From NCBI GenBank assembly GCA_019058295.1, contig JAHPZI010000021.1:105167-169166 (forward strand): a stretch of DNA of 64,000 bases. Reading direction: 5' to 3'. This DNA is from Promethearchaeota archaeon (GTDB taxonomy: Archaea > Asgardarchaeota > Lokiarchaeia > Sigyniarchaeales > SOKP01). The notes under the pieces were generated by a model. The model saw only the letters and a list, made by a program, of their open reading frames with translations, had not been told where the DNA came from and did no database searches. Numbering within the stretch: position 1 is the stretch's first letter; each line of letters opens with the position of its first letter. Positions 40,795 to 61,547 of this stretch are shown one piece after another. A program made the translations under genes and the position numbers.

Positions 40795-40799
40795 TATTC

Positions 40800-41531: not shown

Positions 41532-41571
41532 ATTTGTTTAAAATTTTTTTTGAGTGTTATTAATAAATTAT

Positions 41572-41618: not shown

Positions 41619-41742
41619 AAAAATTATAAATATTCAAATTTATATTTAAATAATAGATATTCTGATTATTCATTAAGGAAGAAACTATTATCGTGTTAAT
41701 TGATCTAATTTAATTATATAAACATACTATAAGTCTTTAAGA

Positions 41743-42078
41743 ATGAATGAATTAACTAAAGCTACATCAGAGTTTTTAAAAGCATTAAGTGATCCAATTA
41801 AATTAGAAATTATTAAATATTTAAAAAATGGTGAAAAATCAGCTAAAGACATTGAAAATATACTAAAGATTAGTCAATCATATACATCTCAACAATTAAA
41901 ACAATTAGAGAGAGCAGAGATAATTTTACATAAAAGAGAAGATGGTATAAAAATGTATTTCATTAAAAACACCAATATTTATCGTGTTATCTCAACAATT
42001 AATTCATATATAATTGAACAACATAAAAAGAAATTTCAAAAGTTAATAGATTCTGATAATATTGAGAAATTAAAATAA
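41743..42078 (+). CDS. ArsR/SmtB-family winged-helix regulator
   Basis: LKALSDPIKLEIIKYLKNGEKSAKDIENILKISQSYTSQQLKQLERAEII is a typical ArsR HTH. Confidence 0.8.
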   Translation: MNELTKATSEFLKALSDPIKLEIIKYLKNGEKSAKDIENILKISQSYTSQQLKQLERAEIILHKREDGIKMYFIKNTNIYRVISTINSYIIEQHKKKFQKLIDSDNIEKLK

Positions 42079-42115
42079 TAAAAAAACCTTAAATCCCCTA
42101 TTTTTCATATCAATT

Positions 42116-42658: not shown

Positions 42659-42778
42659 TTTATTTGCTTTATTTTTTTTAATTTTTCTATATTTTTTAAC
42701 CAATATCTTTAAAAACAATTACTTTTAGTTTAATAATGTTAATCAGCGTAATCAAATAATAAAAAAAGATCATATAAG

Positions 42779-44056: not shown

Positions 44057-44103
44057 TCTTTTTTATCAAAACATATATTTTAAATAATTAATAATTTTGC
44101 GAG

Positions 44104-44418
44104 ATGGAAAATAATAAAATGAAGAAAGATATTGAAAATTTGGTTTTAAATTGGTGTGAGAATGATTTATCAGATAGAATTAATAAAGAAATTAAAAAAG
44201 GATTTACTGTTTTAGATGCTATTGATAAAGCTTTCGAAGAATATAACCTTGAAGACGAAATTATATTAAAATATGAACTTGCTGTTGAAAAGAAAAATAA
44301 TAATAATTCTAAAAATTTAGATTTGACATATAATCAAATTAAGAATTTTAAAGAAAAAATAAAAAAAAGAATTTATAATAAATATATAAATCAAATAGAT
44401 AAAAATTCGAAAAAATAA
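44104..44418 (+). CDS. Hypothetical K/E/N-rich protein
   Basis: ORF only. Confidence 0.3.
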   Translation: MENNKMKKDIENLVLNWCENDLSDRINKEIKKGFTVLDAIDKAFEEYNLEDEIILKYELAVEKKNNNNSKNLDLTYNQIKNFKEKIKKRIYNKYINQIDKNSKK

Positions 44419-44435
44419 TTCTCAAAAACCATATT

Positions 44436-46886
44436 TTATATTTTACTTCTTTTATCCAAAATTTTATTGACAAAGACTTTAATGAAATCTGTAATCAAAA
44501 AAGCAATAATAGCGTAAATCCAAACAAACAATGCTAACATCCAACCCATTGCGGGAAGTAAAATTCCATATACAGTGATCAATGTAGCAATAATTTGGGT
44601 AGCAACCACTGCTATAAACAAAATTTTTGCTGGTCTTTTAGTCCAAAAATGCCCTTTTGTTCTTACAACAAAAACAGTTAAATGCCCTGCTACGGATAAT
44701 TTAAGATATATGAGGGATTGAATAGTTATTTGATCTACATGAAAAACCTGTAATCCGATATATAATACGCCAAATGATGAAAATACTCCTATTATCCCCA
44801 AAATAGATGCCATAGTTAATACTCTCCTCATATCCCAAGCTTCAGGACTTTTATTATACTCTACATTGTCATATGCTATAGTCATAATTGCCGCATCATT
44901 TAAAATTGCTAATAATACTATCATTAACGCAGTTATGGGATAAAATTGAAAAATGATAATAGCTAAAGTTATAAAGATTAAAATTCGTATTGTTTCAGCA
45001 ATTCGATATGTTGAATAATTTAGCATACGTTGAAAGATTTTGCGACTTTCTATTGTAGCATCAATTATAACCGAAAGACCAGGTTTTGTAAGAGTAATGT
45101 CTGCCGCAGATTTAGCTGCATCAGTAGCATTAGATACAGCTATACCTACATCTGCCTTTTTCAGGGCTGGAGCATCATTAACACCATCTCCTGTCATCCC
45201 TACTATATGTCCTCTATCTTGAAGTAGTTCTACTATATGATATTTGTGTTCTGGAAAAACTTCAGCAAAACCATCAGCGTTTTCAACAAGTTCTATTGTA
45301 TCTTCATCAGATTTATCCATAATGGACGAAGAGGGTACTATATTCGTACCTAAATTTACTGTTTTTGCTATTTCTTTAGCAATAGAACTATGATCACCTG
45401 TTAACATTTTAACATTTAATCCCATTGCCATAGCAGTTTTTATTGTTTCTGCTGAATCATCTCGAGGAGGATCATAAAGTGCGATCAGACCAATAAATAT
45501 CCATGAATCTTCATTATTTTTTGTTTTAGCTACTCCAAGAGCTCTGTAACCCTTTTCTGCAAATTCATCAACATACTCATTTACTTTATTACTTAAATCT
45601 TGTTTATTTGAGGATAATGATAATATTATCTGAGGGGCTCCTTTAGCAACTTTAAATTTTTTACCATCTTTATCTTTTACTTCGGCCTCTGTACGTTTAA
45701 TAACTGGGTCAAATGGAGTAAAATTTGCTATAGTATACCCATTAATTATTTTTTCAAATCCTTCAATCATTTTTGCTTTATCAATTATCGTATTATCAAT
45801 TGCATCTTCGTCTTCTTCTCTTGAGGCAAGTGTTCCATATATTAAGATATCATTACTACTAAAATCATTAAATGAAATCACATTTCCAACTGATAAATCA
45901 TTTTTAGTTATAGTACCAGTCTTATCAGAACATAATATATCAACTCCTGCAAGTTCTTCAATAGCAACTAATTTACTAACAATAGCTTCTTTTTTTGTTA
46001 AAGCTACTGCTCCAATTGCCATCGTGACGGATAAAACAGCAGGTAATGCCACCGGTATTGATGCAACTGTCAGAACTAAAGCAAATTCAAATGTACTGAG
46101 AAGATCTGTATTTCGTAAAATTGACACGAGAAAGATTATACCTACAAGAATAGCAGCAAAAACCATTAAAAAATTTCCAATTTTCATAACAGCTTTTTGA
46201 AAATGAGATCGATTTTTAGCTTCTTCTACAAGTTTAGTTGTTTTACCGAAATATGTATTCATTCCTGTTGTAACAACTAACCCATCCATTTCACCTTGTT
46301 TAACTATGGCTCCAGAATAGCCAATATCAGAAACCTTTTTTTCAACAGGTAATGATTCTCCTGTTAATGCAGATTGATCTACTAACAAATAATCTCCTTT
46401 AGTTAATTTAACATCAGCAGGAATTATATCTCCTAATCTAACTCGTATTATATCTCCAGGTACTAAGTCTCTTGCCTCTAATGTTTTCCATTTACCATCA
46501 CGTTTTACTTTAGCTTTTAAGGCTAAATTTTGTTTTAAAAGCTCAATTGCATTATCTGCTTTATGTTCTTCCCAAAATCTGACAATTGCGTTTAAGAGTA
46601 ATAGTGCTAAAATAATCCAAAAATCTGCCCAATGAGCAATTACTGCTGAAAGGATTACTGCAATTTCAATCATCCATGGAATTGGTCCCCAAAAATTACT
46701 TAGAAATTTTATTATTGGGCTAACTTTTTTTTCAGTTATTTCATTATATCCATATTTCTCATATCTTTTTTCTACTTCAGAATTAGAGAGTCCGCTATCG
46801 TTTGATGATAGAATTTTGTATAACTCGTCAATATTTGTGTTTTCTAATTCTTCACTTGTAATTGATTCTTGATTCATAAAATCCAC
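44436..46886 (-). CDS. P-type ATPase, type IIIA (plasma-membrane H+-ATPase-like)
   Basis: CSDKTGTITKN, MLTGDH and MTGDGVNDAPALKKADVGIAV are present. GDIIPADVKLTKGDYLLVDQSALTGESLPVEKK closely resembles plant/fungal PMA-type pumps. Confidence 0.9.
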   Translation of the reverse strand: MDFMNQESITSEELENTNIDELYKILSSNDSGLSNSEVEKRYEKYGYNEITEKKVSPIIKFLSNFWGPIPWMIEIAVILSAVIAHWADFWIILALLLLNAIVRFWEEHKADNAIELLKQNLALKAKVKRDGKWKTLEARDLVPGDIIRVRLGDIIPADVKLTKGDYLLVDQSALTGESLPVEKKVSDIGYSGAIVKQGEMDGLVVTTGMNTYFGKTTKLVEEAKNRSHFQKAVMKIGNFLMVFAAILVGIIFLVSILRNTDLLSTFEFALVLTVASIPVALPAVLSVTMAIGAVALTKKEAIVSKLVAIEELAGVDILCSDKTGTITKNDLSVGNVISFNDFSSNDILIYGTLASREEDEDAIDNTIIDKAKMIEGFEKIINGYTIANFTPFDPVIKRTEAEVKDKDGKKFKVAKGAPQIILSLSSNKQDLSNKVNEYVDEFAEKGYRALGVAKTKNNEDSWIFIGLIALYDPPRDDSAETIKTAMAMGLNVKMLTGDHSSIAKEIAKTVNLGTNIVPSSSIMDKSDEDTIELVENADGFAEVFPEHKYHIVELLQDRGHIVGMTGDGVNDAPALKKADVGIAVSNATDAAKSAADITLTKPGLSVIIDATIESRKIFQRMLNYSTYRIAETIRILIFITLAIIIFQFYPITALMIVLLAILNDAAIMTIAYDNVEYNKSPEAWDMRRVLTMASILGIIGVFSSFGVLYIGLQVFHVDQITIQSLIYLKLSVAGHLTVFVVRTKGHFWTKRPAKILFIAVVATQIIATLITVYGILLPAMGWMLALFVWIYAIIAFLITDFIKVFVNKILDKRSKI

Positions 46887-47247
46887 TTTTTCTTTTATTT
46901 AAAGAAATTCAAATTTATAGTAAATTTCTCATGCATCTTTGTTTTCAGATTAATTTAAACAAATGGTTTAAATTTTATAAAAAAAAATACAGTTTTACAT
47001 GTCGAAATTATAAATTTTTATCTATCTCATTTGATTTCTAAGCTTTCATTATAATGTCATAATAATAGAACTATATTTACCATATAAAACGATTTAACAA
47101 ATTTCTCTTAATTATCATATATTAAGTAGAAATCTAGATTTTATTAACCTTAATTTTAAATATAAAACAAGGTGATTTATTGTAAAAATAATTAAATCAG
47201 AAATATTGTTCAAAATAATCTTTATTATAATATAAATAGGTGCTATA

Positions 47248-49344
47248 ATGAATCAAACAATAAATTTAAGCGTGATAGCTATTAATCCTCAAAATTTATT
47301 TTGGTTTTTCCTTGTAATCACTATAATTCTCTCTATTTTTGGTATTGGCTACATTTTTTGGATTATTCATAAACTGAAGCAATTAGATAATGGAACAGAA
47401 GAAATGATAAAGATTCACAATTTAATTAAATTGGGATCAAATGCTTATTTAAAGAGACAATTTAAAACGATAAGTATCGTTTTAAGTATTTTAACTATCA
47501 TCCTTTTTTTTATAAGTCTTCCATTAGCAATTTCCTTTATGATTGGTGCCATAACATCGCTAATTGCTAGCTATATTAGTATGATCGCATCAACAATGTC
47601 AAATGTAAAGGTCACTCAAGCATGTAAAACCGATATTAAACAAGCTCTAAAAATTGGTTTTAATGCCGGAATGATCATAGGAGTTTCTGTAATTTCAATA
47701 TCATTATTAGGGATCTCGATATTATATATTATATTTAACTACTCCGTTGAGAATATATTAGGATTTGCCTTCGGGGCTTCTTTTTCTGCATTATTTGCTC
47801 AATTAGGTGGAGGAATCTTTACTAAAGGTGCAGATATTGGGGCAGATTTAGTTGGAAAATTAGAGCATGGATTAGCTGAAGATGATATTAGAAATCCAGC
47901 TGCCATCGCTGATAATGTTGGAGATAATGTAGGGGATTGTGCTGGAAGAGGGGCAGATCTTTATGAATCCTCTTCAGCAAACAATATTGGAGCGATGATA
48001 ATTGGTGTTACTCTGACTTTAATTACTAATAATCCATTATTTATTATTTTCTCTTTAATCACAAGAGCATTAGGAAATATTGCTAGTATAATTGGAGGTC
48101 ATTTTGCCAAAATGAAAAATACAGATAAAAGTCCAATTAAAGCTTTTGCCAGAGGATTATCCATTACTGCATTGATGAGTATATTATTCTTTTTTATTTT
48201 AACATGGGTCAGTTTTGGAACTGGATGGTGGCTTTTATTTTTATGTGGAATTTTAGGGATACTCTTAGGGATTTCAACCTATTTCCTTGTTGATTATTAT
48301 ACCTCCTCAAGATATGGACCAGTAAAAAACGTTATAAAAAATTCAGAAACTGGAGCTGCGACAAACGTCATTAGTGGGTTTTCTTTAGGTCTTGAATCTC
48401 CTGCTATTCCAGTTTTTTCATTTATTTTAGGTATATTAATTAGTTTCTCTTTAGGCAAAATATATGGAATTATCCATCATATAGATCCATTTTTAGGCGG
48501 AGTTTTTGGAATAACAATTGCAACTTTGGGATTATTATCTATTACAACAATTATTCTCGCTTTTGATGGATTTGGCCCTGTATCCGATAATGCTGCAGGG
48601 ATCGCTGAAATGGCACATCTCGGAGAGGATGTTAGATTTAATTTAGATCGTTTAGATGCTGTTGGAAATACTACAAAAGCACTTGCAAAGGGATTTGGGA
48701 TAACATGTGCGGCGTTATCTGCCATAATATTATTTGAGGCATATTTAGAGGAAATTAGAGCTACTGATGTAAATATATATCATCCGATTATTATGTGTTC
48801 TTTATTGCTAGGAGCCGTTATTCCATTTCTATTTTCTTCCTTAGCAATTCGAGCAACAGGAAAAGCGGCATATGGAATGATAAAAGAGATCCAAAGACAA
48901 TTTAAAGAAAATCCAGGAATCTTAGAAGGTAATTCACTTCCAGATTATGAGAATTGTATTGATATAGGAACTAAAGTTGCTTTAAAACAGATGATCTTTC
49001 CAGCACTACTTCCCACCCTAACACCAATCTTCTTAGGTTTTTTATTCGGTCCAATTGCAGTTGCTGCTTTTTTGATATCTGGTACAATCTCAGGAATCAT
49101 ATTAGGATTTGTCTTGAATACAGGAGGGGGGGCATTGGATAATGCCAAAAAAGCTATAGAAAGTGGTTTATTAGGTGGAAAAGGTTCTGAGGCCCATTCT
49201 GCATCGGTAGTAGGAGATACGTTTGGTGACCCCTTGAAAGATACAGCTGGCCCCTCACTTCATATTTTAGTTAAAGTCTTAAATACTGTTTCAATCGCTT
49301 TTGCTCCGATTTTTATTGCTTTCGGAGCACTTATAATTTTATAA
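47248..49344 (+). CDS. hppA: Membrane-bound H+-translocating pyrophosphatase, K+-independent type
   Basis: GGGIFTKGADIGADLVGK, AAIADNVGDNVGDCAGRGADL and DAVGNTTKALAKG are present. The Lys in GNTTKA marks the K+-independent class. Confidence 0.95.
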   Translation: MNQTINLSVIAINPQNLFWFFLVITIILSIFGIGYIFWIIHKLKQLDNGTEEMIKIHNLIKLGSNAYLKRQFKTISIVLSILTIILFFISLPLAISFMIGAITSLIASYISMIASTMSNVKVTQACKTDIKQALKIGFNAGMIIGVSVISISLLGISILYIIFNYSVENILGFAFGASFSALFAQLGGGIFTKGADIGADLVGKLEHGLAEDDIRNPAAIADNVGDNVGDCAGRGADLYESSSANNIGAMIIGVTLTLITNNPLFIIFSLITRALGNIASIIGGHFAKMKNTDKSPIKAFARGLSITALMSILFFFILTWVSFGTGWWLLFLCGILGILLGISTYFLVDYYTSSRYGPVKNVIKNSETGAATNVISGFSLGLESPAIPVFSFILGILISFSLGKIYGIIHHIDPFLGGVFGITIATLGLLSITTIILAFDGFGPVSDNAAGIAEMAHLGEDVRFNLDRLDAVGNTTKALAKGFGITCAALSAIILFEAYLEEIRATDVNIYHPIIMCSLLLGAVIPFLFSSLAIRATGKAAYGMIKEIQRQFKENPGILEGNSLPDYENCIDIGTKVALKQMIFPALLPTLTPIFLGFLFGPIAVAAFLISGTISGIILGFVLNTGGGALDNAKKAIESGLLGGKGSEAHSASVVGDTFGDPLKDTAGPSLHILVKVLNTVSIAFAPIFIAFGALIIL

Positions 49345-49465
49345 ATCTCTTTTTTATTATTTTTATTTAACTATTCTAATAGATTAAGATTTAAAACCTT
49401 AATAGAGTATCAAAATTAGTTTTATATGTGAGTTTAGCTAAAATAAAATAAAATAAAAAAACCCA

Positions 49466-49933
49466 TTAACGAACAATTAAAACATCACATGATGCGTGTT
49501 CTAATGCTTTCTCAGCAACTGATCCCATAAGAAACTCTTTTAATTTTGAATGTTCACCTTTATATCCTAATACAACAAGGTCAAATCCTTCTTCCTCTAC
49601 AACTTTTTTAAGATATTCTGCAGGGTTTTCATCTTTTATTAATCTAGTTTCTACTTTAGCCATAGAAGAGCCAAAAATTTCTCGAGCATTATTTAATATA
49701 GTTTTTCCTTCTTCAATTTTTGTTCTTTCAATATCTGAAGAACTCATTGCTGGGTAATGACTTGCTGTTGGCATTATGGAGAGTACTGGTACATTCTCAA
49801 AAAACTTATGCTTAATTGCATGGAAAATGACGACCTTTCTTGGCCATTTTTCTTCAATTTCTCTAATTTTTATAACTGCTCGCATAGAATCTTCAGATCC
49901 ATCAACACCAATCAAAATTTTCTTATAAATTAT
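49466..49933 (-). CDS. Universal stress protein (UspA family); start probably upstream of track TTG 49915
   Basis: KKILIGVDGSEDS...VVLGYKGEHSKLKEFLMGSVAEKALEHASCDVLIV. The frame opens after TGA 49939-49937. GGTGA (49941-49937) is followed by ATA 49933 and ATT 49930. Confidence 0.8.
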   Translation of the reverse strand: MIYKKILIGVDGSEDSMRAVIKIREIEEKWPRKVVIFHAIKHKFFENVPVLSIMPTASHYPAMSSSDIERTKIEEGKTILNNAREIFGSSMAKVETRLIKDENPAEYLKKVVEEEGFDLVVLGYKGEHSKLKEFLMGSVAEKALEHASCDVLIVR

Positions 49934-50160
49934 ATATCACCTTATAAATTTTTAATTATTATCAATCCAAACTACTATCAAATAAGTAGACTTAAAAAGG
50001 TAATATTAAAGTTTTATAAATTATTTAGAAGAACCTCTTTCTAAGATTAATCAGTATAGTAGCTTAACTTTAACATTCTTAACCCGTATTCTTAATAAGT
50101 TAAAACTACAATGAAGATTGACTATAGGATTATAATCAAAATCCTCATGGAGGTTGATAT

Positions 50161-50337
50161 ATGTCAAAAGAAAAAAAGCTTATCTTTTGTTATTATTGTG
50201 GGAATCTAATAAAAGAATATGATGATGAAAAAACTAAAATATGTCCATATTGCGGAATAGAATTACATTATACTGATAAAAAAATTAAGAGAAATAAAGC
50301 ACATAAAACCCTCAATTCAGAAGTATTGGATTTTTAG
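50161..50337 (+). CDS. Unlisted 58-aa zinc-ribbon protein
   Basis: GGAGGT at 50149-50154 lies 6 nt before the ATG at 50161. The product is MSKEKKLIFCYYCGNLIKEYDDEKTKICPYCGIELHY... (CxxC...CxxC), ending at TAG 50335-50337. Confidence 0.55.
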   Translation: MSKEKKLIFCYYCGNLIKEYDDEKTKICPYCGIELHYTDKKIKRNKAHKTLNSEVLDF

Positions 50338-50362
50338 TCCTATTCTAATAACGCATAGAAGG

Positions 50363-51298
50363 TTAATCAAAAGGAATGAATTTATTCATTTCTTCAATGA
50401 ATTTATTCATATCTTCAGCCCTTCTTAAAATTTCAATAAAAATTCTTTTTAACATAATGTAAGTATCGGACAAAAAACGAACAAATGATTTATTGGATGA
50501 TTGAAATCCGGAAACATCAGTTAAGCCAATTCTATTATCTTTTTTATCATCAGTTTTTAAAGCCATTAGGACTTCCGAGTCATCAATTATCGAATACCTT
50601 AGAGGTGCATTTACTATCGCCCCATCAATAAAACAATTTTCAACAAATTTATCTAAAATCTGTTTATTCGGATCTATCACATTTTTTTTGAAAAAAGATC
50701 GAAATCTATTATTTTCTTTCTTTTGAATATCATAAAATGAACCTCCATATAATATTCGTATTTCTAATGAGGGTTTTTTAGTAAAAATCTTATTTAAATA
50801 GTCTTTTAAAATAATCTCCTCATTTTTAATTAAAAATCCACAGATTATTATTACTTTTTTCTCAGCATGTTCAAGTAAATATTCTAAACGCGAAAAATAA
50901 ACATCTATTCTATTGAAAAAGCTAAATGGAATTGTATCGCGCAATGGATATTTTGGTTCAATATGAGGTAAAGAGTATAAATCATCTATCATTTTTTCTC
51001 CTGCTTTTTCTAAAATCATCGTTTTATCAGAAATCATTTTTTCAATGGCGTATTTCGGATCATATACTTCAATGACCATAGGTCGATATCCAATTATATG
51101 TATCAATTTATATTCTTCTAATTTTTTAATAGCCTCATAAACTTTAGGTTTTGAATATTTTGACATCTGAACTAAATCAGATACATTAATTTTATTATAT
51201 TTTTGAGGGGAAACTTTTGTTAATTGAATTAACTGCTTATAAATATTTTTTTCAGTATCTTTAAATTTAAAAACTTCAAAAGGATCAATTTCTATCAT
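50363..51298 (-). CDS. TrmB-like transcriptional regulator
   Basis: N-terminal wHTH pattern (EKNIYKQLIQL...VSDLVQMSKYSKPKVYEAIKKLEEYKLI) followed by a long effector-like domain. Confidence 0.55.
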   Translation of the reverse strand: MIEIDPFEVFKFKDTEKNIYKQLIQLTKVSPQKYNKINVSDLVQMSKYSKPKVYEAIKKLEEYKLIHIIGYRPMVIEVYDPKYAIEKMISDKTMILEKAGEKMIDDLYSLPHIEPKYPLRDTIPFSFFNRIDVYFSRLEYLLEHAEKKVIIICGFLIKNEEIILKDYLNKIFTKKPSLEIRILYGGSFYDIQKKENNRFRSFFKKNVIDPNKQILDKFVENCFIDGAIVNAPLRYSIIDDSEVLMALKTDDKKDNRIGLTDVSGFQSSNKSFVRFLSDTYIMLKRIFIEILRRAEDMNKFIEEMNKFIPFD

Positions 51299-51567
51299 TT
51301 TCTAGTTTGAAAAAATTTGTAGTTAATATTATTAATTTCAAATTTGTTGTTAATAAATTTAATTATAATTTCTATTTATTTAATTTGGGCATTTTTAAAT
51401 AATTTCAAAAAATAAATATTTCAATATTTTTTAGATTTTTTTTTGTAAAATATTCAAGAATTTTACCCAAACTTCCCTATCATAAAATTCTGAAATATAT
51501 ATAAAAAGATTTATCCCTTAAATAGACAAAAACTTTAAAAACTCAGTTAAGGATTATATTATTAAGT

Positions 51568-51585
51568 GAAAAATTTCAATTTTTC
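51568..51585. promoter_or_regulatory. Palindrome GAAAAATT-TC-AATTTTTC upstream of the 51660 operon
   Basis: Read directly. It lies 75-92 nt upstream of the ATG at 51660 and next to the divergent TrmB-like gene. AT-rich context weakens its significance. Confidence 0.2.
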
Positions 51586-51659
51586 ATATAAAAATTATAA
51601 ATAATTATAGTTTTTTAATTCAAGGTTATAAGAAAATAAAATATGTAATTAGGTGAAAT

Positions 51660-52922
51660 ATGAAATATCTTGAAAAATTATTAAAAGATTTTCAAAATAT
51701 ACCTCAAAACATCATTCTCCACGCCGATATCCTAAGAAGGGGTATTAAACTGAACGATGATTTGAAAAGAGCGGGTAAAGAATCGTGTCAAACAGGAATC
51801 GCTACAAAACTTCAATATCATATCCTGAACCAAAAAGATTTGCCACCCAGCCAGTTCCATTTCACGTCAGATGAGACAACAGTGGATATAAAAATAGATA
51901 AAAACAGCCCCTATGAGATAAAAGAGCTTAGTAGTAAAGAATACCATCTTTGCGCCGGGGACAGGGATTTCGGCAGGGTTAGATTTACAAAGCGTCCTAA
52001 ATACGCAGATAAAAACACATCGGATGGACAGGAATGCCAGTTTCTCTTAATGCAGAGAGGTTCATTCTGCCTTCTTGTGAGCCCTCTTGACTTTTGCGCA
52101 TATCTTAAAAAAGGTGATGCATGTCAATATTGTATCCTATCCCCAGCAATGGATATTGCAATACAGCGAGAAATAATGAAACCGATACCTGATCATAAGA
52201 TCATTGCTGAAGCTGTTGAGATTGCTTGTAAAGAGGATGTTAAGCTCAGGGACTTGAAACTCTCCGGCGGAGCACTTTATAACACCAAAAAGGAGGCAGA
52301 ATACTATAAAAGTTGCCTTTCGGCGATTCTTGAGCGTATTGATCCACCTGAGGAGATTACAATCTTCTCACAGGCATTTGATAAGGAAGATCAGATGGAT
52401 TTAAAAGAGATGGGGGCAACGAATGTAATCTTTAATTTGGAGGTCTGGGATGAACAACTCTGGCCTAAGCTTCTTCCAGGTAAGGCAAAAGCAATTGGGC
52501 GTGAAGAATGGATTAACCGACTTAAAGATGCGGTGGAGATCTTCGGAAGGGGGCATGTAAGTTGTAGCTTTGTAGCGGGATTTGAGTGCGCTCCTAAGCA
52601 AGGTTTCTTAACACAAGAAGATTCATTTAATGCATATTTAACTGCATTTGAATTTCTTCTTAAGAGGGATATAGTGCCATCGTTTACCATTTGGACGCCT
52701 TACCCTTTAGTTGGTGGATTTAAAGAAAAGGATCCCCCCGACACTGAATGGTATCTCCGGTTAGGAGTAAAACACCATGAAATGTTGGAAAAGTATGATA
52801 TGTACAAATCTTTGGGATTCCCTCATTATGGAGTAGATCCCCCAACACTTGGTCTATACTGTTATTATTGCTTTAGTATGCAGTTTCTACGTGATTTTCC
52901 AAGGTTAATTGATCGTGATTAA
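51660..52922 (+). CDS. Radical-SAM-like Fe-S enzyme candidate with noncanonical Cys motif (Cx8Cx2C)
   Basis: FCAYLKKGDACQYC sits where a CxxxCxxC cluster would be expected. LKLSGGA resembles the GGE motif. TIM-barrel-like beta/alpha alternation. Sampled lines are 40-43% GC, above the neighbouring genes. The family is not securely recognised. Confidence 0.4.
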   Translation: MKYLEKLLKDFQNIPQNIILHADILRRGIKLNDDLKRAGKESCQTGIATKLQYHILNQKDLPPSQFHFTSDETTVDIKIDKNSPYEIKELSSKEYHLCAGDRDFGRVRFTKRPKYADKNTSDGQECQFLLMQRGSFCLLVSPLDFCAYLKKGDACQYCILSPAMDIAIQREIMKPIPDHKIIAEAVEIACKEDVKLRDLKLSGGALYNTKKEAEYYKSCLSAILERIDPPEEITIFSQAFDKEDQMDLKEMGATNVIFNLEVWDEQLWPKLLPGKAKAIGREEWINRLKDAVEIFGRGHVSCSFVAGFECAPKQGFLTQEDSFNAYLTAFEFLLKRDIVPSFTIWTPYPLVGGFKEKDPPDTEWYLRLGVKHHEMLEKYDMYKSLGFPHYGVDPPTLGLYCYYCFSMQFLRDFPRLIDRD

Positions 52923-53037
52923 AAATGATTTTTGAAAAAAGAAGGTAAATTAAAATTTACCATCTAAAACTATATCTAAAGTTATAAATTATCATAAATT
53001 TATAGAGAAAATATTAAATCTTAAAAAGTAATATATA

Positions 53038-53496
53038 ATGTCTTCGAAAAATGAGAAAGCACTACAATTAAGAAATGAGACCATAGCCGCAAATGTGGGT
53101 AGATTGTTTCAAATGTTAGTTGATATATATGGTGTATCAGAGCTTCATAATTTAGAAAAGATTGTTAAAAAGCGAGAAGGACAAGTAGTAAATCTTGATT
53201 TTAAACCATTAAATACCACTGTTTCCTTTGTCTTATCTAAATCTCGCCTTTCTCCACATTTAGGAAAATCTGATAAAGCCGCTGCGACTGTGATTTTAAA
53301 TATGAAAAAAGAAGACTTAATCCCTTCATTTATAGATTTTATCAAAACCAAGGATAATTTTTTCGGTTTTCTAAAAAATATTTTTAAATATTATATTCCA
53401 GGAAAAATTAAAGTAAAAGGTTCCTTAGGTGCTGGAATTACTTTATGGAAATTACTTTTCATCGGAAAGCATTCAATGTATAAGAAAAAAACGTAG
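53038..53496 (+). CDS. SCP2 (sterol-carrier-protein-2)-like lipid-binding domain protein
   Basis: AATVILNMKKEDLIP...GKIKVKGSLGAGITLWKLL matches the SCP2 C-terminal pattern GKLKIKGdmglAmKL. Confidence 0.6.
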   Translation: MSSKNEKALQLRNETIAANVGRLFQMLVDIYGVSELHNLEKIVKKREGQVVNLDFKPLNTTVSFVLSKSRLSPHLGKSDKAAATVILNMKKEDLIPSFIDFIKTKDNFFGFLKNIFKYYIPGKIKVKGSLGAGITLWKLLFIGKHSMYKKKT

Positions 53497-53504
53497 CAAA
53501 CGAG

Positions 53505-54653
53505 ATGGTATTAATGAGTTTTGAAAGTTTCATAAAAGTAAATAAAACTATTTCTAATTCTTATGTAGAGGAATGGAAAAAGCAAGGAAAAAAAATTGTA
53601 GGATATTACTGTTCTTATATTCCAGAGGAGATTTTAGTTTCAGGAGGAATTTTACCATTTAGAATGAGATCGGTCGAAGCGGAAGGAACTTCTCGAGCAG
53701 ATACTATTTTAAGTCGTTTTAATTGCTCGTTTGTTCGAGCATCCCTAGATTTAGCGATGCAAGGTAAATATAACTTTCTTGATGGATTAGTGGTTATGAA
53801 TTCTTGCGACCACGCTCGAAGGATGTATGATATTTGGAAATATAAAATAATTGGAAAGTTGGAGGGAATTGAGGAGAATTTTGGATTATTTTTTATTTCT
53901 TTACCACATATTATTACAGAAAGAGGATATAATTGGTTATTAGAGGAATTCACATTTTTTAAAGAAAATTTAGAAAAAACCTATAATATAACGATTTCCG
54001 AAGAAAATCTAAAAACTGCAATTAAAACTTTGAATGAAAACAGAAAACTTCTAAAGGAAATTCATAAATTTCGAATTCTAGATAAACCAAAACTTAATGG
54101 AGTTGAAGCTCTTAAATTAAATATCGCAACTACCGCTACTCCAAAAGAAATTTCAAACCAAGTATTAAGTTCTTATTTGCAGTCTCTAAAGGATCGAGAA
54201 GGCATATCAGATTATAGAGCAAGATTATTGATTACAGGAAGTCTAATTGATGATCCTACTTTTTTAAAAATTATTGAAGATGTTGGCGGTCTTGTGGTCT
54301 CAGATTTATTATGCTTTGGTGTTAGAAATTTTTGGGACTTAACTCCTGAAACAGGAGATCCTTTAGAATCAATTACCAAACGTTATTATGAGAAAATCTC
54401 TTGTCCAAGAATGATGGATGATCATGACAGGCGATTTAAATTCCTACAAGAGTTAATAAAAGAAGCGAAAGTAGATGGAGTAATCGGAACAAGAATCGAG
54501 TTTTGCGATTTAAATGGATGTGAATGCATGCTATATGAACATGAATTGGAAGATTTAAACATTCCCATGTTAAGTTTAGATAGAGATTATTTTGTTGGTG
54601 ATAAAGGAAGATTTAAAACTCGATTCGAAGCTTTTATCGAACAAATTGAATAA
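53505..54653 (+). CDS. 2-hydroxyacyl-CoA dehydratase / benzoyl-CoA reductase BcrC/BadD-type subunit (HGD-D family)
   Basis: IVGYYCSYIPEEILVSGGILPFRM, NSCDHARRMYD and RIEFCDLNGCECMLYEHEL are typical HGD-D family blocks. Confidence 0.8.
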   Translation: MVLMSFESFIKVNKTISNSYVEEWKKQGKKIVGYYCSYIPEEILVSGGILPFRMRSVEAEGTSRADTILSRFNCSFVRASLDLAMQGKYNFLDGLVVMNSCDHARRMYDIWKYKIIGKLEGIEENFGLFFISLPHIITERGYNWLLEEFTFFKENLEKTYNITISEENLKTAIKTLNENRKLLKEIHKFRILDKPKLNGVEALKLNIATTATPKEISNQVLSSYLQSLKDREGISDYRARLLITGSLIDDPTFLKIIEDVGGLVVSDLLCFGVRNFWDLTPETGDPLESITKRYYEKISCPRMMDDHDRRFKFLQELIKEAKVDGVIGTRIEFCDLNGCECMLYEHELEDLNIPMLSLDRDYFVGDKGRFKTRFEAFIEQIE

Positions 54654-54670
54654 AAAAAAAGGTTAATTAT

Positions 54671-55978
54671 ATGAGTAGCCATAAAATTATTCCGTATGAA
54701 ATATTATATGAAGCAATATGTACCACAAAGGACCTTGTTGAAGGTGGCCCCGCTAAAGATGAACTTTTAGTGTTAAAATCATTTTTGAAACACATGAAAA
54801 CCGTTATTAAAAGATATCTAGATAATGCAGATTCAGGGTTACCTGTAATAGGACATCATTTTGCATGGCCAACAGAAATATTTTATTGCTTCGATTTTGT
54901 CCCCGTTGTATTTGAAGGAATTCCATACATACTGAGTGCATTATTACCCGAAGGTTCTGAAAGGTTCTATGATATCGCAGATAGCTTTGGTCATCCTTAT
55001 CATTCTTGTACCTCTCAAAAAGGAACTTTGGGCATGGTCTTGGACGGTTTATTTGAATTTGATGTAATATCAACGCCAACGAGTCCATGTGATAATACTT
55101 TTGCAACTTATCCTGTTATAAAACAATTATATGATAAAATCAAAAAGCAAAAAACACCATTTATAATTGCTGATATGCCATATTATCGTGATGATCGCTC
55201 TTATAATTACTACGGAAAAGAATTAAATAGAGTAGTTTCAGAAATAGGTCAAATTATCGGTCAAGAACCTGATTATGAGAAGTTAAGAAAAGCTATTGAT
55301 GTAAATAATAAAGCAATTGAAATTATTGCAGAAATAAACGAATTTAAAAAACTTACACCATGTCCAATTGAATCCATGTTTTGTCCTTTAATGACTGCAG
55401 TTTTGGCATTCATCCCAGGCCAACCTGAAAGAATAGGTTTTTTTAAAGATGTATTAGAAATCGCAAAAAAGCGAGCTAATAAAGGTGAGAGAGCACATGA
55501 AGGAGAAGAAAAAATACGAACCGTCTGGCCATATATGTCTATCTTTTTTGACATTGGATTCTGTGAATGGTTGGATCGGGAAATTGGAGCGACAATACTA
55601 TTAGATATATTCAATTATTTATTTTTTGATGTTATTGATACCTCAAAAAGCGAAGAACATATTTTTAAAGGATTAGCAAAACAATCGATGAATTATCCTA
55701 TGGTAAGACAATCCGCAACTTTTTGTGATGACCTTATCACAGATTTTATCTATTTATCAAAAGAATATAAAGCAGATTGTGCAATCTTCACAGCTCACTT
55801 AGGTTGTAAACAAAGCGTTAGCGTTATCCAATTATTAAGAGAGGCATTCCGAGATGAGATTGGAATCCCAATGCTTTCAATTGATCTTGATATAGGAGAT
55901 GCCCGATTTACTTCTATAGCAACTGTAAAAAGAGAAATAGAAAATTTTACTAAAATTCATGATTTTTCGAAAAAATAA
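54671..55978 (+). CDS. 2-hydroxyacyl-CoA dehydratase / benzoyl-CoA reductase BcrB/BadE-type subunit (HGD-D family)
   Basis: PVIGHHFAWPTEIFYCFDFVPV, YHSCTSQKG, TSPCDN and FTAHLGCKQS are conserved-Cys blocks of the family. Confidence 0.75.
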   Translation: MSSHKIIPYEILYEAICTTKDLVEGGPAKDELLVLKSFLKHMKTVIKRYLDNADSGLPVIGHHFAWPTEIFYCFDFVPVVFEGIPYILSALLPEGSERFYDIADSFGHPYHSCTSQKGTLGMVLDGLFEFDVISTPTSPCDNTFATYPVIKQLYDKIKKQKTPFIIADMPYYRDDRSYNYYGKELNRVVSEIGQIIGQEPDYEKLRKAIDVNNKAIEIIAEINEFKKLTPCPIESMFCPLMTAVLAFIPGQPERIGFFKDVLEIAKKRANKGERAHEGEEKIRTVWPYMSIFFDIGFCEWLDREIGATILLDIFNYLFFDVIDTSKSEEHIFKGLAKQSMNYPMVRQSATFCDDLITDFIYLSKEYKADCAIFTAHLGCKQSVSVIQLLREAFRDEIGIPMLSIDLDIGDARFTSIATVKREIENFTKIHDFSKK

Positions 55979-56055
55979 TGTTCAATCTTTAATCTTTTAT
56001 TATTAATTAATCACATAATCGTTTATAGAATCATTAGCATCAGTGGGATTTCGAT

Positions 56056-56856
56056 TTGAAGGATTATAATTTTTATATTGGGGTGGATGCGGGAGCATCT
56101 TTTTGTAAAGCAATTGCTTTAAATTCGAAGAATAACGAAATTAAAGCAAATTCAATCACTTTTGTCCTTGGAAATCCTGAAAAAGCAGCAAATAAGTGTT
56201 TAGATGAAATAGGAAAGAAATTAAATGTGAAATTAAAAATTTTAAAAAAAAATGTAATTACTACAGGACAAAATGGGGATAAGATTAGAATTGGACAAAA
56301 TAAATCCGAAATAATATGCATTGGGAGAGGAGCCTATGCACTCGATCCTAATATAAGAATTATGGTGGATGTTGGGAGCTTTAGCATGAAAGTATTAAAA
56401 ATAGATGAATCTGGAATAATCAAAGATTATCTTATGAACAATAAATGCGCTGCAGGATCAGGAGTCCTATTAGAACTCGTTGCTGAAGGCTTAGAAATGA
56501 GAATTGACGAATTAAATAATAAAGCATTTCAAGCAAAAAAGCCAATTCAGATTTCAAGCCAATGTAGCATTTTTGCTGAATCTGAGGTAATTTCTTATAA
56601 GAATGAAGGAGCAAATATTCCTGATTTAGTTGCAGGGGTGTGTAATTCTGTAGCAGGTAGAATTTATCCCTTAATTCGGATGATTGATAAAGAAACAAAT
56701 AAAGTAGCTTTTAGTGGAGGGGTCGCTAAAAACAAATATATAGCTGAAAATCTTGAGGAACGATTAGGATTTAAATTGGTCAAATTATCACTTGAACCAG
56801 AATATATAGCTGCATATGGAGCTGCAATTATAGCAAAAGAGGGAGGGGGAACATAA
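56056..56856 (+). CDS. BcrAD/BadFG/HgdC-type ATPase (electron-activating subunit 1)
   Basis: ASKHA phosphate-1 motif GVDAGASFCKA. Cluster-bridging Cys motifs NNKCAAGSG and SSQCSIFAESEV. TTG start. Confidence 0.85.
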   Translation: MKDYNFYIGVDAGASFCKAIALNSKNNEIKANSITFVLGNPEKAANKCLDEIGKKLNVKLKILKKNVITTGQNGDKIRIGQNKSEIICIGRGAYALDPNIRIMVDVGSFSMKVLKIDESGIIKDYLMNNKCAAGSGVLLELVAEGLEMRIDELNNKAFQAKKPIQISSQCSIFAESEVISYKNEGANIPDLVAGVCNSVAGRIYPLIRMIDKETNKVAFSGGVAKNKYIAENLEERLGFKLVKLSLEPEYIAAYGAAIIAKEGGGT

Positions 56857-56857
56857 A

Positions 56858-57640
56858 ATAGTATTTGCGGGAATTGATATAGGGTCTCTCACAGGTAAAG
56901 CATTATTGTTAGAAGATAGTGAGATCCGTGGATTTAAAATAATTAGGGTAAAAAAAACTCCCGTTGAAACTGCTGAAAGTGTTTTTGAAATGGTTTTATC
57001 CGAGACGGGGATAAATAGGGATAATGTAAAATTTGTGGTTAGTACAGGTTACGGGAGAGATAATATTCCCTTTTCTAATAAAAGTATGACAGAAATCACA
57101 TGCCATGGGTTAGGTGCCCATTTTCTAATACCAAGCATTCGGACGATAATTGATATAGGGGGTCAGGATTGTAAAGTAATCGCCGTAGATCGAACGGGTA
57201 AATTAGTTGAATTTGCAATGAATGAGAAATGCTCCGCAGGCACGGGAAGATATCTCGAAATAATGGCCAATTTACTCCATATTTCACTCGATGATCTTGG
57301 GACTTTATCATTGAAGAGTAAAACTCCTGTTCAATTGAAAAGTACTTGTAGTATTTATGCTCAAGCCGAGGTATTGCAATGTATCAATTCTGGATTTAAG
57401 AAGTCTAATATAGCTGCGGGAATTAATAAAGCTATGGCTGAGCGCGTTTATTCCATGTCAAAAAAAGTTAAGATGAGACCAGATGTGGTTATTTCTGGAG
57501 GTGTAGCTAAAAATGCTGGTGTTGTCGGTTATCTGGAAGAAATGATAGGAATCGAATTCTTAAAATTACCAATTGATCCTCAAATTATTGGTGCTCTTGG
57601 AGCTGCTGTAATTGCTCAAGAGAGGTATAAAAGAAAGTGA
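56858..57640 (+). CDS. BcrAD/BadFG/HgdC-type ATPase (subunit 2); start extended to ATA 56858
   Basis: Track ORF (TTG 56906) omits the essential phosphate-1 motif. The extended frame reads (I)VFAGIDIGSLTGKALLLED.... NEKCSAGTGRYLE and KSTCSIYAQAEV are present. The frame opens after TAG 56831-56833. The junction is TAAAATA at 56854-56860. Confidence 0.85.
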   Translation: MVFAGIDIGSLTGKALLLEDSEIRGFKIIRVKKTPVETAESVFEMVLSETGINRDNVKFVVSTGYGRDNIPFSNKSMTEITCHGLGAHFLIPSIRTIIDIGGQDCKVIAVDRTGKLVEFAMNEKCSAGTGRYLEIMANLLHISLDDLGTLSLKSKTPVQLKSTCSIYAQAEVLQCINSGFKKSNIAAGINKAMAERVYSMSKKVKMRPDVVISGGVAKNAGVVGYLEEMIGIEFLKLPIDPQIIGALGAAVIAQERYKRK

Positions 57641-57786
57641 AAAATAACTTATAGAAATTACATGGTTAATTTTTTTTTTCTTATAAAATAAAGACATAAT
57701 ATTTTTTAAAAAACTGTAACTAAATAGCAATAGTTAATATTTAGGAATCTTAGTGTTAGTCTGATTTAGATTCTTTATAAATATAA

Positions 57787-60057
<2,271 letters not shown>

Positions 60058-60247
60058 TGGTTTAATAGGCTCCCTGGTATCAGCAGCATCCCCAGACTTG
60101 GTAATATTGATATAAATAAAACTACAGGCGTATAGAAAAAAAAGTAGATAATTCCATTTTAAAATTACATTTTTTTTTATTAACTAGGAAGAAAATATAA
60201 ATTGTAAGCAATTCAATTTATTAGGAACACTAAAGTAGTGAAATATT

Positions 60248-60739
60248 ATATATCAATCCGAGAAAAACTCTGATCTCCCAGAAGAAGGATCTAGTAACTC
60301 TGAACTAGAAAATAATGAGCCTGAAAATTTAAATAAGGAGGATGAGAAAGAGCGCAATAAATATGTCAGAGGATTATATTTTACTGGGGGTATCATTTGT
60401 TTAAGTTTAGGAATTATAGGAATACTTTTACCTATTTTACCTACTACCCCTTTTCTTTTACTTGCCGCAGGATGCTTTTCTAGAAGTTCTAAAAGATTTT
60501 ATAATTGGTTATTAAACAACAGGATTCTTGGCTCATATATTAGAAACTTTAGAGAAGGAAAAGGAATGCCTATAAAAGTTAAAATTTTTACAATTTCTAT
60601 GTTATGGATAACAATTCTTTTAACATCGTTCATTTTTATTCAAATTATATGGATTAGATATGTACTAATCATCATTGCTATTGCTGTGACAATTCATATT
60701 ATTTTAATTCGCCCAAAAAAAAAAAAGAGTAAAAGTTAG
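60248..60739 (+). CDS. DUF454 (YbaN)-family small membrane protein; no canonical start (ATT 60245 / ATA 60248 proposed)
   Basis: Absent from the ORF track. The frame opens after TGA 60239-60241. It reads ...GLYFTGGIICLSLGIIGILLPILPTTPFLLLAAGCFSRSSKRFYNWLL..., the hallmark DUF454 core. The first in-frame ATG is at 60566. TAG at 60737-60739. Confidence 0.6.
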   Translation: MYQSEKNSDLPEEGSSNSELENNEPENLNKEDEKERNKYVRGLYFTGGIICLSLGIIGILLPILPTTPFLLLAAGCFSRSSKRFYNWLLNNRILGSYIRNFREGKGMPIKVKIFTISMLWITILLTSFIFIQIIWIRYVLIIIAIAVTIHIILIRPKKKKSKS

Positions 60740-60926: not shown

Positions 60927-61547
60927 ATGGATAATAGAAAAAATAGCGAAGGTGATATTTTAAATCAAGCCTTCGAATTAATGGGAAAAGGTACTGATTT
61001 AGCAAAAGTAAAAGAATACGATGAGGCATTAAGATTATATAATGAAGCTGTAGAATTACTAAGAGAAATTAATTGGGTTGACCAAATTCAAACAATCCAA
61101 AAAACAATTGATCAGTTGGAAATAGAAAGAATACATCATAATCAAGCTTTAGAAAAACAAAAAGCTCGTGATGAAAAACAACGCAAATTAAAAGCTGAAG
61201 AGGCAATCTTAGAAGAGAAACAAGCTAAAGAAGAAAAAGAAAGAATAGAAAGTGAAAGAGCAAGGAAAATAGAGAAGTCTGAAAAAGAGAAGGATTTTAA
61301 ACAGCAAATTGTTGATATGGAGGAATATACTGATAAAATGATAAGAGAATACGAATCTCAGATTAAGAAAGGAAATTTTAACTCAGATCCTCCATACGAA
61401 AAAGTAATTAGAATATATTTGAATATGAGAAGTTTGTTAACAGAAAAAGGTTGGAAGGCCCAAATTGATAACGTTAATGAACAAATTAAATTTTTCATAG
61501 AGAAAATAGAAAAAGATAAAAAATTACGAGAAATTTATTCGGCATAA
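60927..61547 (+). CDS. Coiled-coil protein with two related TPR/MIT-like helical hairpins
   Basis: N-terminal AFELMGKGTDLAKVKEYDEALRLYNEAVELLREINWVDQIQ and C-terminal YEKVIRIYLNMRSLLTEKGWKAQIDN share a pattern. They flank a K/E-rich helix. Confidence 0.45.
   Translation: MDNRKNSEGDILNQAFELMGKGTDLAKVKEYDEALRLYNEAVELLREINWVDQIQTIQKTIDQLEIERIHHNQALEKQKARDEKQRKLKAEEAILEEKQAKEEKERIESERARKIEKSEKEKDFKQQIVDMEEYTDKMIREYESQIKKGNFNSDPPYEKVIRIYLNMRSLLTEKGWKAQIDNVNEQIKFFIEKIEKDKKLREIYSA

Follow-up and report, generated by a model that had tools for sequence, protein, structure and literature searches.

A five-gene module in a Promethearchaeota genome

The window analyzed here is a 64,000-nucleotide stretch of contig JAHPZI010000021.1, assembled from a Promethearchaeota archaeon (Asgard archaea; Lokiarchaeia), and it contains a gene cluster related to the benzoyl-CoA reductases (BCR) and 2-hydroxyacyl-CoA dehydratases (HAD). 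From 50363 to 60057, the gene order is a TrmB-like helix-turn-helix regulator on the reverse strand, a variant radical SAM gene, five genes that we call sm, N, O, P, and Q, and the gene for the catalase-peroxidase KatG. The name sm denotes an SCP2-like protein, N and O denote two HGD-D subunits, and P and Q denote two BcrAD/BadFG ATPases. We conclude that the functional unit is the five-gene set sm-N-O-P-Q (53038 to 57640; 4.6 kb). We propose, with about an even chance of being right, that it encodes an ATP-driven low-potential reductase of Bzd architecture that has an obligate SCP2-like third component and acts on a hydrophobic substrate.

The genes that the initial annotation described at 51660 to 57640 are all present as open reading frames (ORFs) where it placed them, except that the start of Q is corrected from 56906 to 56858. 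All five genes of the module lie on the forward strand. The first, sm (53038 to 53496), encodes a 152-residue protein of predicted SCP2 fold, the proposed third component of the enzyme in either a substrate-handling or a structural role. N (53505 to 54653) encodes a BzdN/DCCP-like HGD-D protein (E value of 7e-86), the predicted carrier of an [8Fe-9S] double cubane for electron relay and storage, and O (54671 to 55978) encodes a second HGD-D protein (4.5e-48) of an Asgard-specific family, a catalytic-type subunit with a predicted three-cysteine, open-site [4Fe-4S] cluster. P (56056 to 56856) encodes a divergent ASKHA ATPase with a degenerate phosphate-2 motif (BcrAD_BadFG, 1e-34), and Q (56858 to 57640) encodes a canonical ASKHA ATPase (BcrAD_BadFG, 2e-55) that the ORF caller had begun at a TTG at 56906.

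The module is bounded by distinctive spacers. Upstream, a 115-nucleotide AT-rich spacer (52923 to 53037, forward strand) carries a hairpin at 52940 to 52965, after the stop codon of the radical SAM gene, and then TATA-like boxes ahead of sm (TTATAAAT at 52982 to 52989 and TTTATA at 53000 to 53005). At the downstream edge, 30 nucleotides past the stop codon of Q, a run of 10 T residues on the forward strand (57670 to 57679) probably serves as an archaeal terminator of transcription. Both the promoter and the terminator are putative assignments, read from the sequence of an AT-rich genome. Scans of the window for tRNA genes and Rfam elements found none. The identical cluster is also present on the metagenome-assembled genome (MAG) contigs JAHPZC010000087 and JAHPZF010000125 and in a Logan assembly.

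Genes that belong together

The distribution of the module is largely confined to Asgard archaea. A scan of one genome per species recovered 107 relatives of O, almost all from Asgard MAGs, and the window proteins were mapped onto 78 loci. Homologs of O carry the names Promethearchaeota, Lokiarchaeota, Helarchaeota, Hodarchaeota, or Sigynarchaeota. Across the mapped loci, the core of the module is sm-N-O or sm-N-O-O', often with two paralogous O genes per N gene. The P-Q pair is found in cis in only a few smaller clades, including the clade of the window (the window itself and loci L008, L009, L012, L013, and L014); on the contig of L014, no ATPase genes were found.

The gene sm is a strictly co-conserved and genuine part of the system. 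It lies directly 5' of N at 62 of 70 N genes, with a median gap of 33 nucleotides, is 5' of N but separated from it by three inserted genes at 4, and is lost to a contig edge at another 4. All told, sm accompanies N at every one of the 66 assessable Asgard loci and is absent from none, and the initial suggestion that an SCP2-like gene is a partner of the reductase-like genes is thereby borne out.

A cassette swap between close relatives provides independent, purely genetic evidence on which genes go together. At locus L012, from MAG AMARA_1S, the TrmB-like and radical SAM genes are 92 to 98% identical in nucleotide sequence to those of the window (50482 to 52881), and identity is again 95 to 100% from katG onward (57722 to 60720). 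Between these flanks, however, window positions 52882 to 57721 are only 51 to 76% identical to L012 (5270 to 10100), and the divergent interval comprises exactly sm, N, O, P, and Q. Identity falls from 97% to 62% within the spacer between the radical SAM gene and sm, is still 51% at 57597 to 57721, the interval that holds the T run, and then returns to 96%. Because the flanks are so much more alike than the five genes between them, the five genes must have been exchanged as one cassette, with breakpoints in both intergenic spacers. We read the alignment as allelic cassette replacement through recombination between Asgard lineages.

The radical SAM gene (51660 to 52922, forward strand) and the TrmB-like gene (50363 to 51298, reverse strand) are neighbors of the module by descent only and lie outside the system. 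Either or both might have been thought to act with the reductase in a wider unit, for example by maturing the enzyme, activating its substrate, or specifically regulating its genes, and indeed the radical SAM gene is adjacent to sm on the same strand across a gap of 115 nucleotides, an order that is kept in L012. L012 is a close relative with nearly identical flanks, however, and thus the shared order reflects descent rather than selection. Moreover, the identity break, the hairpin, and the AT-rich spacer all part the radical SAM gene from sm. Of all the module loci, only the window and L012 have these two genes beside the module. L008, L009, L013, and approximately 70 other loci carry the module without them, approximately 75 module loci lack the radical SAM gene, and the loci of radical SAM homologs (L001 to L004, L010, and L011) lack the module. 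Finally, tblastn matches to the TrmB-like gene were confined to L012 and the lineage of the window itself, and the gene sits within the high-identity flank. We consider a wider unit very improbable. The TrmB-like regulator, initially noted alongside the cluster, drops out of the system, and of the genes beside the four enzyme genes, sm is co-conserved with them and the radical SAM and TrmB-like genes are not.

The SCP2-like protein

How sm might contribute to the enzyme is suggested by its predicted fold. By sequence, sm scores 16.8 bits against the Pfam family SCP2 (PF02036), under the gathering score of 21.3. An AlphaFold (AF2) model of medium confidence (predicted local distance difference test [pLDDT] score of 71.6) was compared with solved structures by Foldseek, and the matches ranked 1 to 33, down to an E value of approximately 0.04, were all SCP2-fold proteins or domains, 20 of them at an E value of 0.001 or below. 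The top match was the UbiJ SCP2 structure 6h6p (E value of 3e-6; template modeling [TM] score of 0.71), followed by the SCP2 domains of alkylsulfatases and by SCP2 itself. The matches agree with the SCP2 fold, which comprises an alpha/beta architecture with a five-stranded sheet and a C-terminal strand of the form G-K-x-K-x-K-G. Moreover, hhalign aligned the C-terminal KIKVKGS region of sm with a true SCP2 family that is encoded at related Asgard loci (E value of 2.6e-4; probability of 42%).

The sm family is small, with 47 representatives among 1.84 billion proteins, and every one is a stand-alone small protein. UbiJ and UbiT of ubiquinone synthesis and the SCP2 domains of alkylsulfatases are likewise small stand-alone or appended domains, and the enzymes with which they work are presented with hydrophobic substrates that these domains hold. 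The resemblance has limits, however, as sm is only 14 to 16% identical to these proteins, which is not significant, and its partner enzyme is of a wholly different class; ligand binding by sm is a prediction. Among indexed papers, we found none that mention SCP2 together with benzoyl-CoA reductase. Genes for proteins of 157 to 166 residues that adjoin the radical SAM homologs at L001, L002, and L004 were considered as possible sm homologs and were rejected, as they encode unrelated membrane proteins.

Two distinct ATPases

P and Q are related ATPases that have diverged from one another. The two proteins are 35% identical, and each has the pair of cluster-bridging cysteines that had been attributed to it (motifs NNKCAAGSG/SSQCSIF and NEKCSAGTG/KSTCSIY). 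The best PDB matches of both are MbdQ, HadI, and HgdC, and for Q, phmmer returned MbdQ at 1e-61 and HadI at 4e-61. The phosphate-2 motif reads DIGGQD in Q and DVGSFS in P, and the degeneracy in P is kept in 14 of 14 Asgard P orthologs. The presence of two different ATPase subunits points to a class I BCR layout rather than to the homodimeric activators of HAD enzymes and DCCP. Thus, the four-subunit arrangement of two HGD-D proteins and two different ATPases is that of class I BCRs (BzdNOPQ and MbdONPQ) and not that of HgdAB with a single HgdC, as the initial annotation had held.

Translation of Q probably begins at a noncanonical codon within the interval 56834 to 56906. The phosphate-1 loop, GIDIGSLTGK, is encoded in frame but 5' of the first ATG, GTG, or TTG, and a start at the TTG at 56906 would delete it. 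The in-frame sequence upstream of 56906, KIVFAGIDIGSLTGK, reads K-I-V-F-A-G-I-D-I-G-S-L-T-G-K. An ATA at 56858 lies one nucleotide past the TAA stop codon of P, with GGAGGGGG 8 nucleotides upstream of it, and it aligns with an ATG in L012 and L009; L008 has ACG-ATA at this place (12170 to 12230). An assembly error is unlikely because the sequence of the start region is identical in three other assemblies. As judged from this arrangement, Q probably starts at the ATA and is probably translated by termination-reinitiation after P. Fusion of P and Q by frameshifting was also considered and was dropped, as the relatives have an ordinary stop codon followed by ATG.

Cofactor ligands of N and O

N retains every cysteine known to bind a double cubane. 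In BzdN, an [8Fe-9S] double cubane is ligated by Cys36, Cys73, Cys100, Cys263, Cys293, and Cys327 (Fuchs et al. 2025; PMC11971306). BzdN is also the best solved relative of N (8s02_B; 2e-45), ahead of DCCP and HadC, and the six ligands align with C36, C74, C101, C270, C300, and C334 of N, all of which are 100% conserved among 68 Asgard N proteins. BzdN has three arginines around its distal subcluster, two of which are kept in N, and the residues of N that align with BzdN Arg53 and Arg267 (R53 and R274) show little or no variation across the same 68 proteins. Gene callers elsewhere start N at M4.

O retains the ligands of an open-site cluster and departs from BzdO at one active-site position. 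The [4Fe-4S]-OH2 cluster of BzdO is ligated by Cys95, Cys128, and Cys380, and Glu65, His131, and Trp46 are active-site residues (PMC11971306). In O, C113, C140, and C379 are 99 to 100% conserved across the 107 proteins, and C140 aligns with Cys128 of BzdO. The residue at the position of His131 is T143, within the motif P-C140-D141-N-T, in which the aspartate after the second cysteine (D141) and the PCD motif as a whole are invariant. E82, likewise invariant, aligns with Glu55 of HadB. The alignment to BzdO misses the N terminus of O, and the remaining active-site correspondences are of spacing only: the invariant F64 lies 49 residues before the first cysteine, as does Trp46 in BzdO, and E82 lies 31 residues before it, compared to 30 for Glu65.

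The cofactors distinguish the related enzymes from one another. In a published scheme, DCCP contains two double cubanes, BzdNO contains one double cubane and one [4Fe-4S]-OH2 cluster, and HAD contains a [4Fe-5S] and a [4Fe-4S]-OH2 cluster, and the double cubane is assigned an electron-accumulating role (PMC11971306). By its conserved ligands, the N-O pair is predicted to be of the BzdNO type under this scheme. Accumulation of electrons on a double cubane would suit a two-electron reduction.

Relationship to characterized enzymes

Placement of the subunits rests on the curated equivalog cutoffs of NCBIfam and on profile-to-PDB scores. For N, the top model is double_cubane (NF040772; 215 bits against a cutoff of 350), followed by BzdN (157 against 454), HadC (149.9 against 700), and BcrC (114 against 421). 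O scores 46.7 against 750 for HadB, 39 against 350 for double_cubane, 30.7 against 486.6 for BcrB, and 15.8 against 448.6 for BzdO. P reaches 108 of 578 for BcrA, 98 of 380 for BzdQ, and 91 of 313 for BcrD, and Q reaches 198 of 380 for BzdQ, 162 of 578 for BcrA, and 125 of 313 for BcrD. Every curated cutoff is missed widely, and none of the subunits was seen to fall inside a characterized clade. We conclude from these scores that the subunits belong outside the curated Bcr, Bzd, Had, and DCCP families as presently modeled.

The closest architectural match is to the class I BCRs BzdNOPQ of Aromatoleum sp. CIB (8S02) and MbdONPQ of Thauera chlorobenzoica (9GAI). Like these enzymes, the module encodes two HGD-D proteins and two different ASKHA ATPases, with six [8Fe-9S] cysteines in N, a three-cysteine [4Fe-4S] site and a conserved glutamate in O, and bridging cysteines in P and Q. 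The module might then be a genuine Bzd-type class I reductase of benzoyl-CoA or a substituted benzoyl-CoA, a label that metagenomic papers and KEGG-style annotation have given to four-subunit Asgard clusters. BzdN is the nearest solved protein to N and MbdQ the nearest to P and Q, close homologs are named "benzoyl-CoA reductase subunit B" by JGI, a Lokiarchaeota cluster that is comparable by description only has been placed in the Bzd class by Farag et al., and F64 and E82 are spaced like Trp46 and Glu65 of BzdO. Against this identity, however, O has threonine at the position of the proposed catalytic histidine, the cutoffs for O are missed more than 10-fold, and all eight Bcr/Bzd equivalog models reach only 4 to 52% of their cutoffs. 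No dch, had, or oah gene and no ferredoxin or benzoate-CoA ligase gene was found in the 64-kb window or beside the module in L008, L009, and L012, and genes for a crotonase, an acyl-CoA dehydrogenase, or any other CoA ligase or CoA-transferase were likewise not found in the window. Unlike Bzd and Mbd, the family has an obligate SCP2-like gene before N, and we know of no bzd or bcr operon that includes such a partner. It also has a large Asgard-specific set of paralogs, often with two O genes per N gene, which is unlike an enzyme with a single conserved substrate. A true BCR is, in our judgment, decidedly unlikely. Thus, the resemblance to bcrCBAD that was first noted holds for the architecture, down to the six BzdN cysteines in N, and does not extend to the catalytic histidine of BzdO or to nearby genes of a benzoyl-CoA pathway. 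The substrate is probably something other than benzoyl-CoA because His131 is replaced by threonine, the scores fall far under the cutoffs, and the 64 kb hold no pathway genes.

The fold of O does not separate a reductase subunit from a dehydratase subunit. The AF2 model of O (pLDDT of 89.3) superposes on HadB with TM scores of 0.77 to 0.84 and on BzdO and MbdO with scores of 0.74 to 0.80, while the N and beta subunits fit less well. HadB and BzdO/MbdO match about equally, and the fold was rejected as a discriminator. The family profile of O is also roughly equidistant from the solved structures, at 50 bits for DCCP, 46 for HadB, 38 for BzdO, and 33 for MbdO, and the family is approximately 14 to 16% identical to BzdO and MbdO.

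One alternative is an atypical HAD-type enzyme of amino acid fermentation, in which P-Q would be the activator and sm would aid bulky substrates of the phenyllactyl or isocaproyl type. Cultivated Asgard archaea do ferment amino acids, and phenyllactate dehydratase (FldABC) shows that a complex of this kind can include a third subunit from outside the HGD-D family, in its case a CoA-transferase. HadB is the best match of O in the PDB by single-sequence search, in NCBIfam, and in Foldseek, and as in HadBC with HadI (3O3M and 4EHT), HgdAB with HgdC, and FldABC with FldI, the catalytic glutamate equivalent to HadB Glu55 is conserved in O, and Q is near HadI. Moreover, paralogous N-O loci adjoin a GlcD-type FAD oxidase and an HdrD/TfrB-like protein that could make or consume 2-hydroxy acids, and most paralogs have no ATPase in cis. 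N, however, keeps all six double-cubane cysteines, including the distal subcluster ligands that are missing from the HAD beta subunit, and the module encodes two distinct ATPase subunits, one of them degenerate, in place of the single gene for a homodimeric activator. The HadB and HadC scores (46.7 against 750 and 149.9 against 700) are far from their cutoffs, and the window has no gene for a CoA-transferase or a 2-hydroxyacid dehydrogenase. Finally, the FAD oxidase at the paralogous loci is nearer, over its FAD domain only, to p-cresol methylhydroxylase and vanillyl-alcohol oxidase than to D-lactate dehydrogenase. We regard a dehydratase as unlikely, albeit the foremost of the alternatives.

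Another possibility is an enzyme that resembles DCCP and reduces small or non-CoA molecules, in which the double cubane of N would itself be the active site and O would be accessory. The double_cubane model is the top model of N, DCCP is the top profile match of the O family, and the system shares with DCCP and its reductase (6ENO and 7YYL) the six cysteines of N, the Cys-Asp motif of O, and ATP-dependent electron injection by an ASKHA ATPase. DCCP, however, is a homodimer with six cysteines per subunit and two double cubanes, whereas the module is predicted to form a heterodimer of N with an O subunit from which the three distal cysteines have disappeared. The double_cubane cutoff of 350 is missed, P and Q are different proteins where the DCCP reductase has two copies of one, and DCCP has no SCP2 partner; the strict pairing with sm suggests a larger, hydrophobic ligand. 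Such an enzyme seems improbable to us.

A proposed mechanism and points against it

How a Bzd-architecture reductase with an SCP2-like component might work can be proposed from the parts. P and Q would pair asymmetrically and hold one [4Fe-4S] cluster between them, with Q binding ATP canonically and P having a degenerate phosphate-2 site. ATP hydrolysis would push an electron from the P-Q cluster into the [8Fe-9S] cluster of N, which would store two or more electrons. N would then pass electrons to the open-site, three-cysteine [4Fe-4S] cluster of O, where the substrate would be reduced. As an obligate partner, sm would bind and deliver a hydrophobic substrate with an aromatic or long-chain acyl moiety or, alternatively, would cap the substrate channel. 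Observed here are the genes present, their cofactor ligands, their co-conservation, the way they are inherited as a cassette, and how far they lie from characterized families, and the subunit stoichiometry, a net reduction rather than a dehydration, the role of sm, and the hydrophobicity of the substrate are what we infer from them.

Several points weigh against the proposed reductase. By sequence and fold, O is as near to the dehydratase subunit HadB as it is to BzdO, and the catalytic glutamate is common to both such that the active-site residues cannot separate a reductase from a dehydratase. Of the 107 O proteins, 89 have no ATPase in cis, which fits an activator that acts catalytically, as in dehydratases, and a reductase that consumes ATP would be costly for a fermentative organism. 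Assignment of sm to SCP2 depends on a model of medium confidence and on weak sequence signals, and indeed, just 3 of 31 sm family members touch Pfam SCP2, at an E value of approximately 0.008, such that the family goes unrecognized as SCP2 by sequence. The noncanonical start of Q makes its level of expression uncertain. Finally, the enzymatic function is a prediction for every member of the family.

If the proposal is correct, the module adds a third setting to those in which the rare [8Fe-9S] double cubane occurs in nature and is a possible case of three-component substrate delivery in the BCR/HAD family of radical enzymes. At 4.6 kb, sm-N-O-P-Q is also a compact target for expression. We further speculate, from the strict conservation of sm, that the enzyme acts on no soluble aromatic CoA ester and that sm instead hands over to it a lipid-like or otherwise very hydrophobic molecule, a suggestion that we ourselves hold to be doubtful. 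Such a molecule might be an isoprenoid, a compound with a long chain or of the alkyl-phenolic type, or a precursor of membrane lipids. Were it true, a second SCP2 protein, a flavoprotein like vanillyl-alcohol oxidase and p-cresol methylhydroxylase (VAO/PCMH), and an HdrD-like subunit would join the enzyme in many Asgard genomes. Together they would make up a radical pathway, driven by ATP and specific to Asgard archaea, that handles hydrophobic substrates and is unlike any characterized one, and it would belong to the archaea most closely related to eukaryotes.

Published Asgard clusters and related loci

Several metagenomic papers have credited Asgard archaea with anaerobic degradation of aromatic compounds on the basis of four-subunit "benzoyl-CoA reductase" clusters. 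Farag et al. (bioRxiv 10.1101/763623) read a four-subunit cluster of Lokiarchaeota as a Bzd-type BCR. Firrincieli et al. (2021; PMC8072921) noted that bins of Thor, Loki, and Heimdall archaea contain bcr-like genes but lack dch, had, and oah, and they raised the possibility of an unknown pathway. The bcr clusters that Zhang et al. (2021; PMC8163825) described in Hermodarchaeota adjoin dch and had and were attributed to transfer between Hermodarchaeota and Chloroflexi; these are probably a different thing. On Lokiarchaeota together with 2-hydroxyglutaryl-CoA dehydratase, or on the structure of MbdONPQ, our literature searches returned little or nothing. Published BCR labels on four-subunit Asgard clusters of the kind described here look like overannotation, and the inference of aromatic degradation is weakened wherever it rests on clusters of the sm-N-O-P-Q family.

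Other Asgard loci place additional genes beside the core. In loci of the main clade (e.g., L027, L052, and L078), sm-N-O is often flanked by a second SCP2 protein, one that is Pfam positive, and N-O is flanked by an FAD_binding_4 flavoprotein of the GlcD/D-lactate dehydrogenase superfamily and by an HdrD/TfrB-like CCG protein. The best solved matches of the flavoprotein, over its FAD-binding domain only, are p-cresol methylhydroxylase, eugenol oxidase, and vanillyl-alcohol oxidase (approximately 1e-26), compared to 1e-17 for D-lactate dehydrogenase. Two SCP2-type proteins and a VAO/PCMH-like flavoprotein point to hydrophobic and possibly phenolic substrates, which we offer as a lead and not as a result. 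In loci of the Helarchaeota type (L047 [2367 to 11691], L060, L069, and L083), the gene order is sm, SCP2, flavoprotein, CCG protein, N, and O, and a P-Q pair lies downstream of the module in L047, L060, and L083. Modules of this type, with approximately 48% identity to O, also occur on two contigs of a bacterial MAG named Candidatus Deferrimicrobium sp. (L069 and L071); either these contigs are Asgard sequences that were misbinned, or bacteria have, in a rare event, received the module by transfer. Also recurrent near N-O in other Asgard genomes are a pair of CdhC-like and CooC-like genes, methylmalonyl-CoA mutase with MeaB, and DUF6125.

Flanking genes and the rest of the window

The 420-residue product of the gene at 51660 to 52922 is a variant radical SAM protein. 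A profile search, which the initial annotation had proposed as a check, matched NCBIfam NF045502 ("variant_rSAM") over the full length at 208.8 bits, compared to a cutoff of 125. No Pfam family was matched, including PF04055, for which some homologs carry precomputed matches, and no meaningful match was found among solved structures. The cysteines do not fit the canonical CX3CX2C spacing; rather, C146-x8-C155-x2-C158 is invariant in 25 homologs down to 24% identity. The GC content of the gene is 36 to 39%, compared to approximately 29 to 32% for its neighbors. Homologs from Deltaproteobacteria/Thermodesulfobacteriota MAGs are 60 to 67% identical, and those on Asgard contigs (L004, L010, and L011) are 74 to 80% identical. 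With bacterial homologs and the higher GC content, the gene was probably acquired by horizontal transfer between domains. Its homologs at L001 to L003 (bacteria) and at L004, L010, and L011 (Asgard) have unrelated neighbors and no HGD-D genes, and no conserved gene neighborhood was found across the loci examined. Thus, the invariant motif and the richer GC content first noted for this protein stand, and its membership in the system does not.

The TrmB-like regulator scores 26.2 bits against PF01978, for which the gathering score is 25.6. Adjoining the start of its gene, at 51313 to 51366, is a pair of tandem 27-nucleotide repeats, AAATTTGTAGTTAATATTATTAATTTC and AAATTTGTTGTTAATAAATTTAATTAT, that form an imperfect palindrome. 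The pair may be an operator, or it may have arisen by chance, as the region is AT rich. When the spacer between the TrmB-like and radical SAM genes was compared with the spacer upstream of sm for a shared operator, only low-complexity, AT-rich matches were found.

KatG is encoded directly downstream of the cassette (57841 to 60057; NF011635, 1,329 bits). Its gene has a GC content of 46 to 50% in a genome of approximately 30%, is 96 to 100% identical in nucleotide sequence to that of L012, and on the GC contrast was probably acquired horizontally. It also accounts for a GC-rich stretch at 58 to 59.5 kb, for which rRNA was considered as a source and rejected, as the stretch had no Rfam or tRNA match.

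The window and L012 also differ elsewhere. An 11.6-kb stretch of the window (38790 to 50395) separates blocks that adjoin one another in L012 and encodes DUF998, TFIIB, Lrp/AsnC, and ArsR proteins, an Arf/Rag-like GTPase, an M28 peptidase, a P-type ATPase, a membrane pyrophosphatase, and a Usp protein. Positions 1 to 283 of L012 match the window at 15817 to 16099, and the two genomes thus differ by rearrangements as well. Elsewhere in the window are genes for two very large multi-PAS histidine kinases of 1,671 and 1,126 residues (16346 to 21361 and, on the reverse strand, 32691 to 36071), three grouped Roadblock/LC7 genes (23855 to 26759), two TFIIB paralogs (31035 to 31934 and, on the reverse strand, 39790 to 40794), and an MIT domain protein (60927 to 61547).

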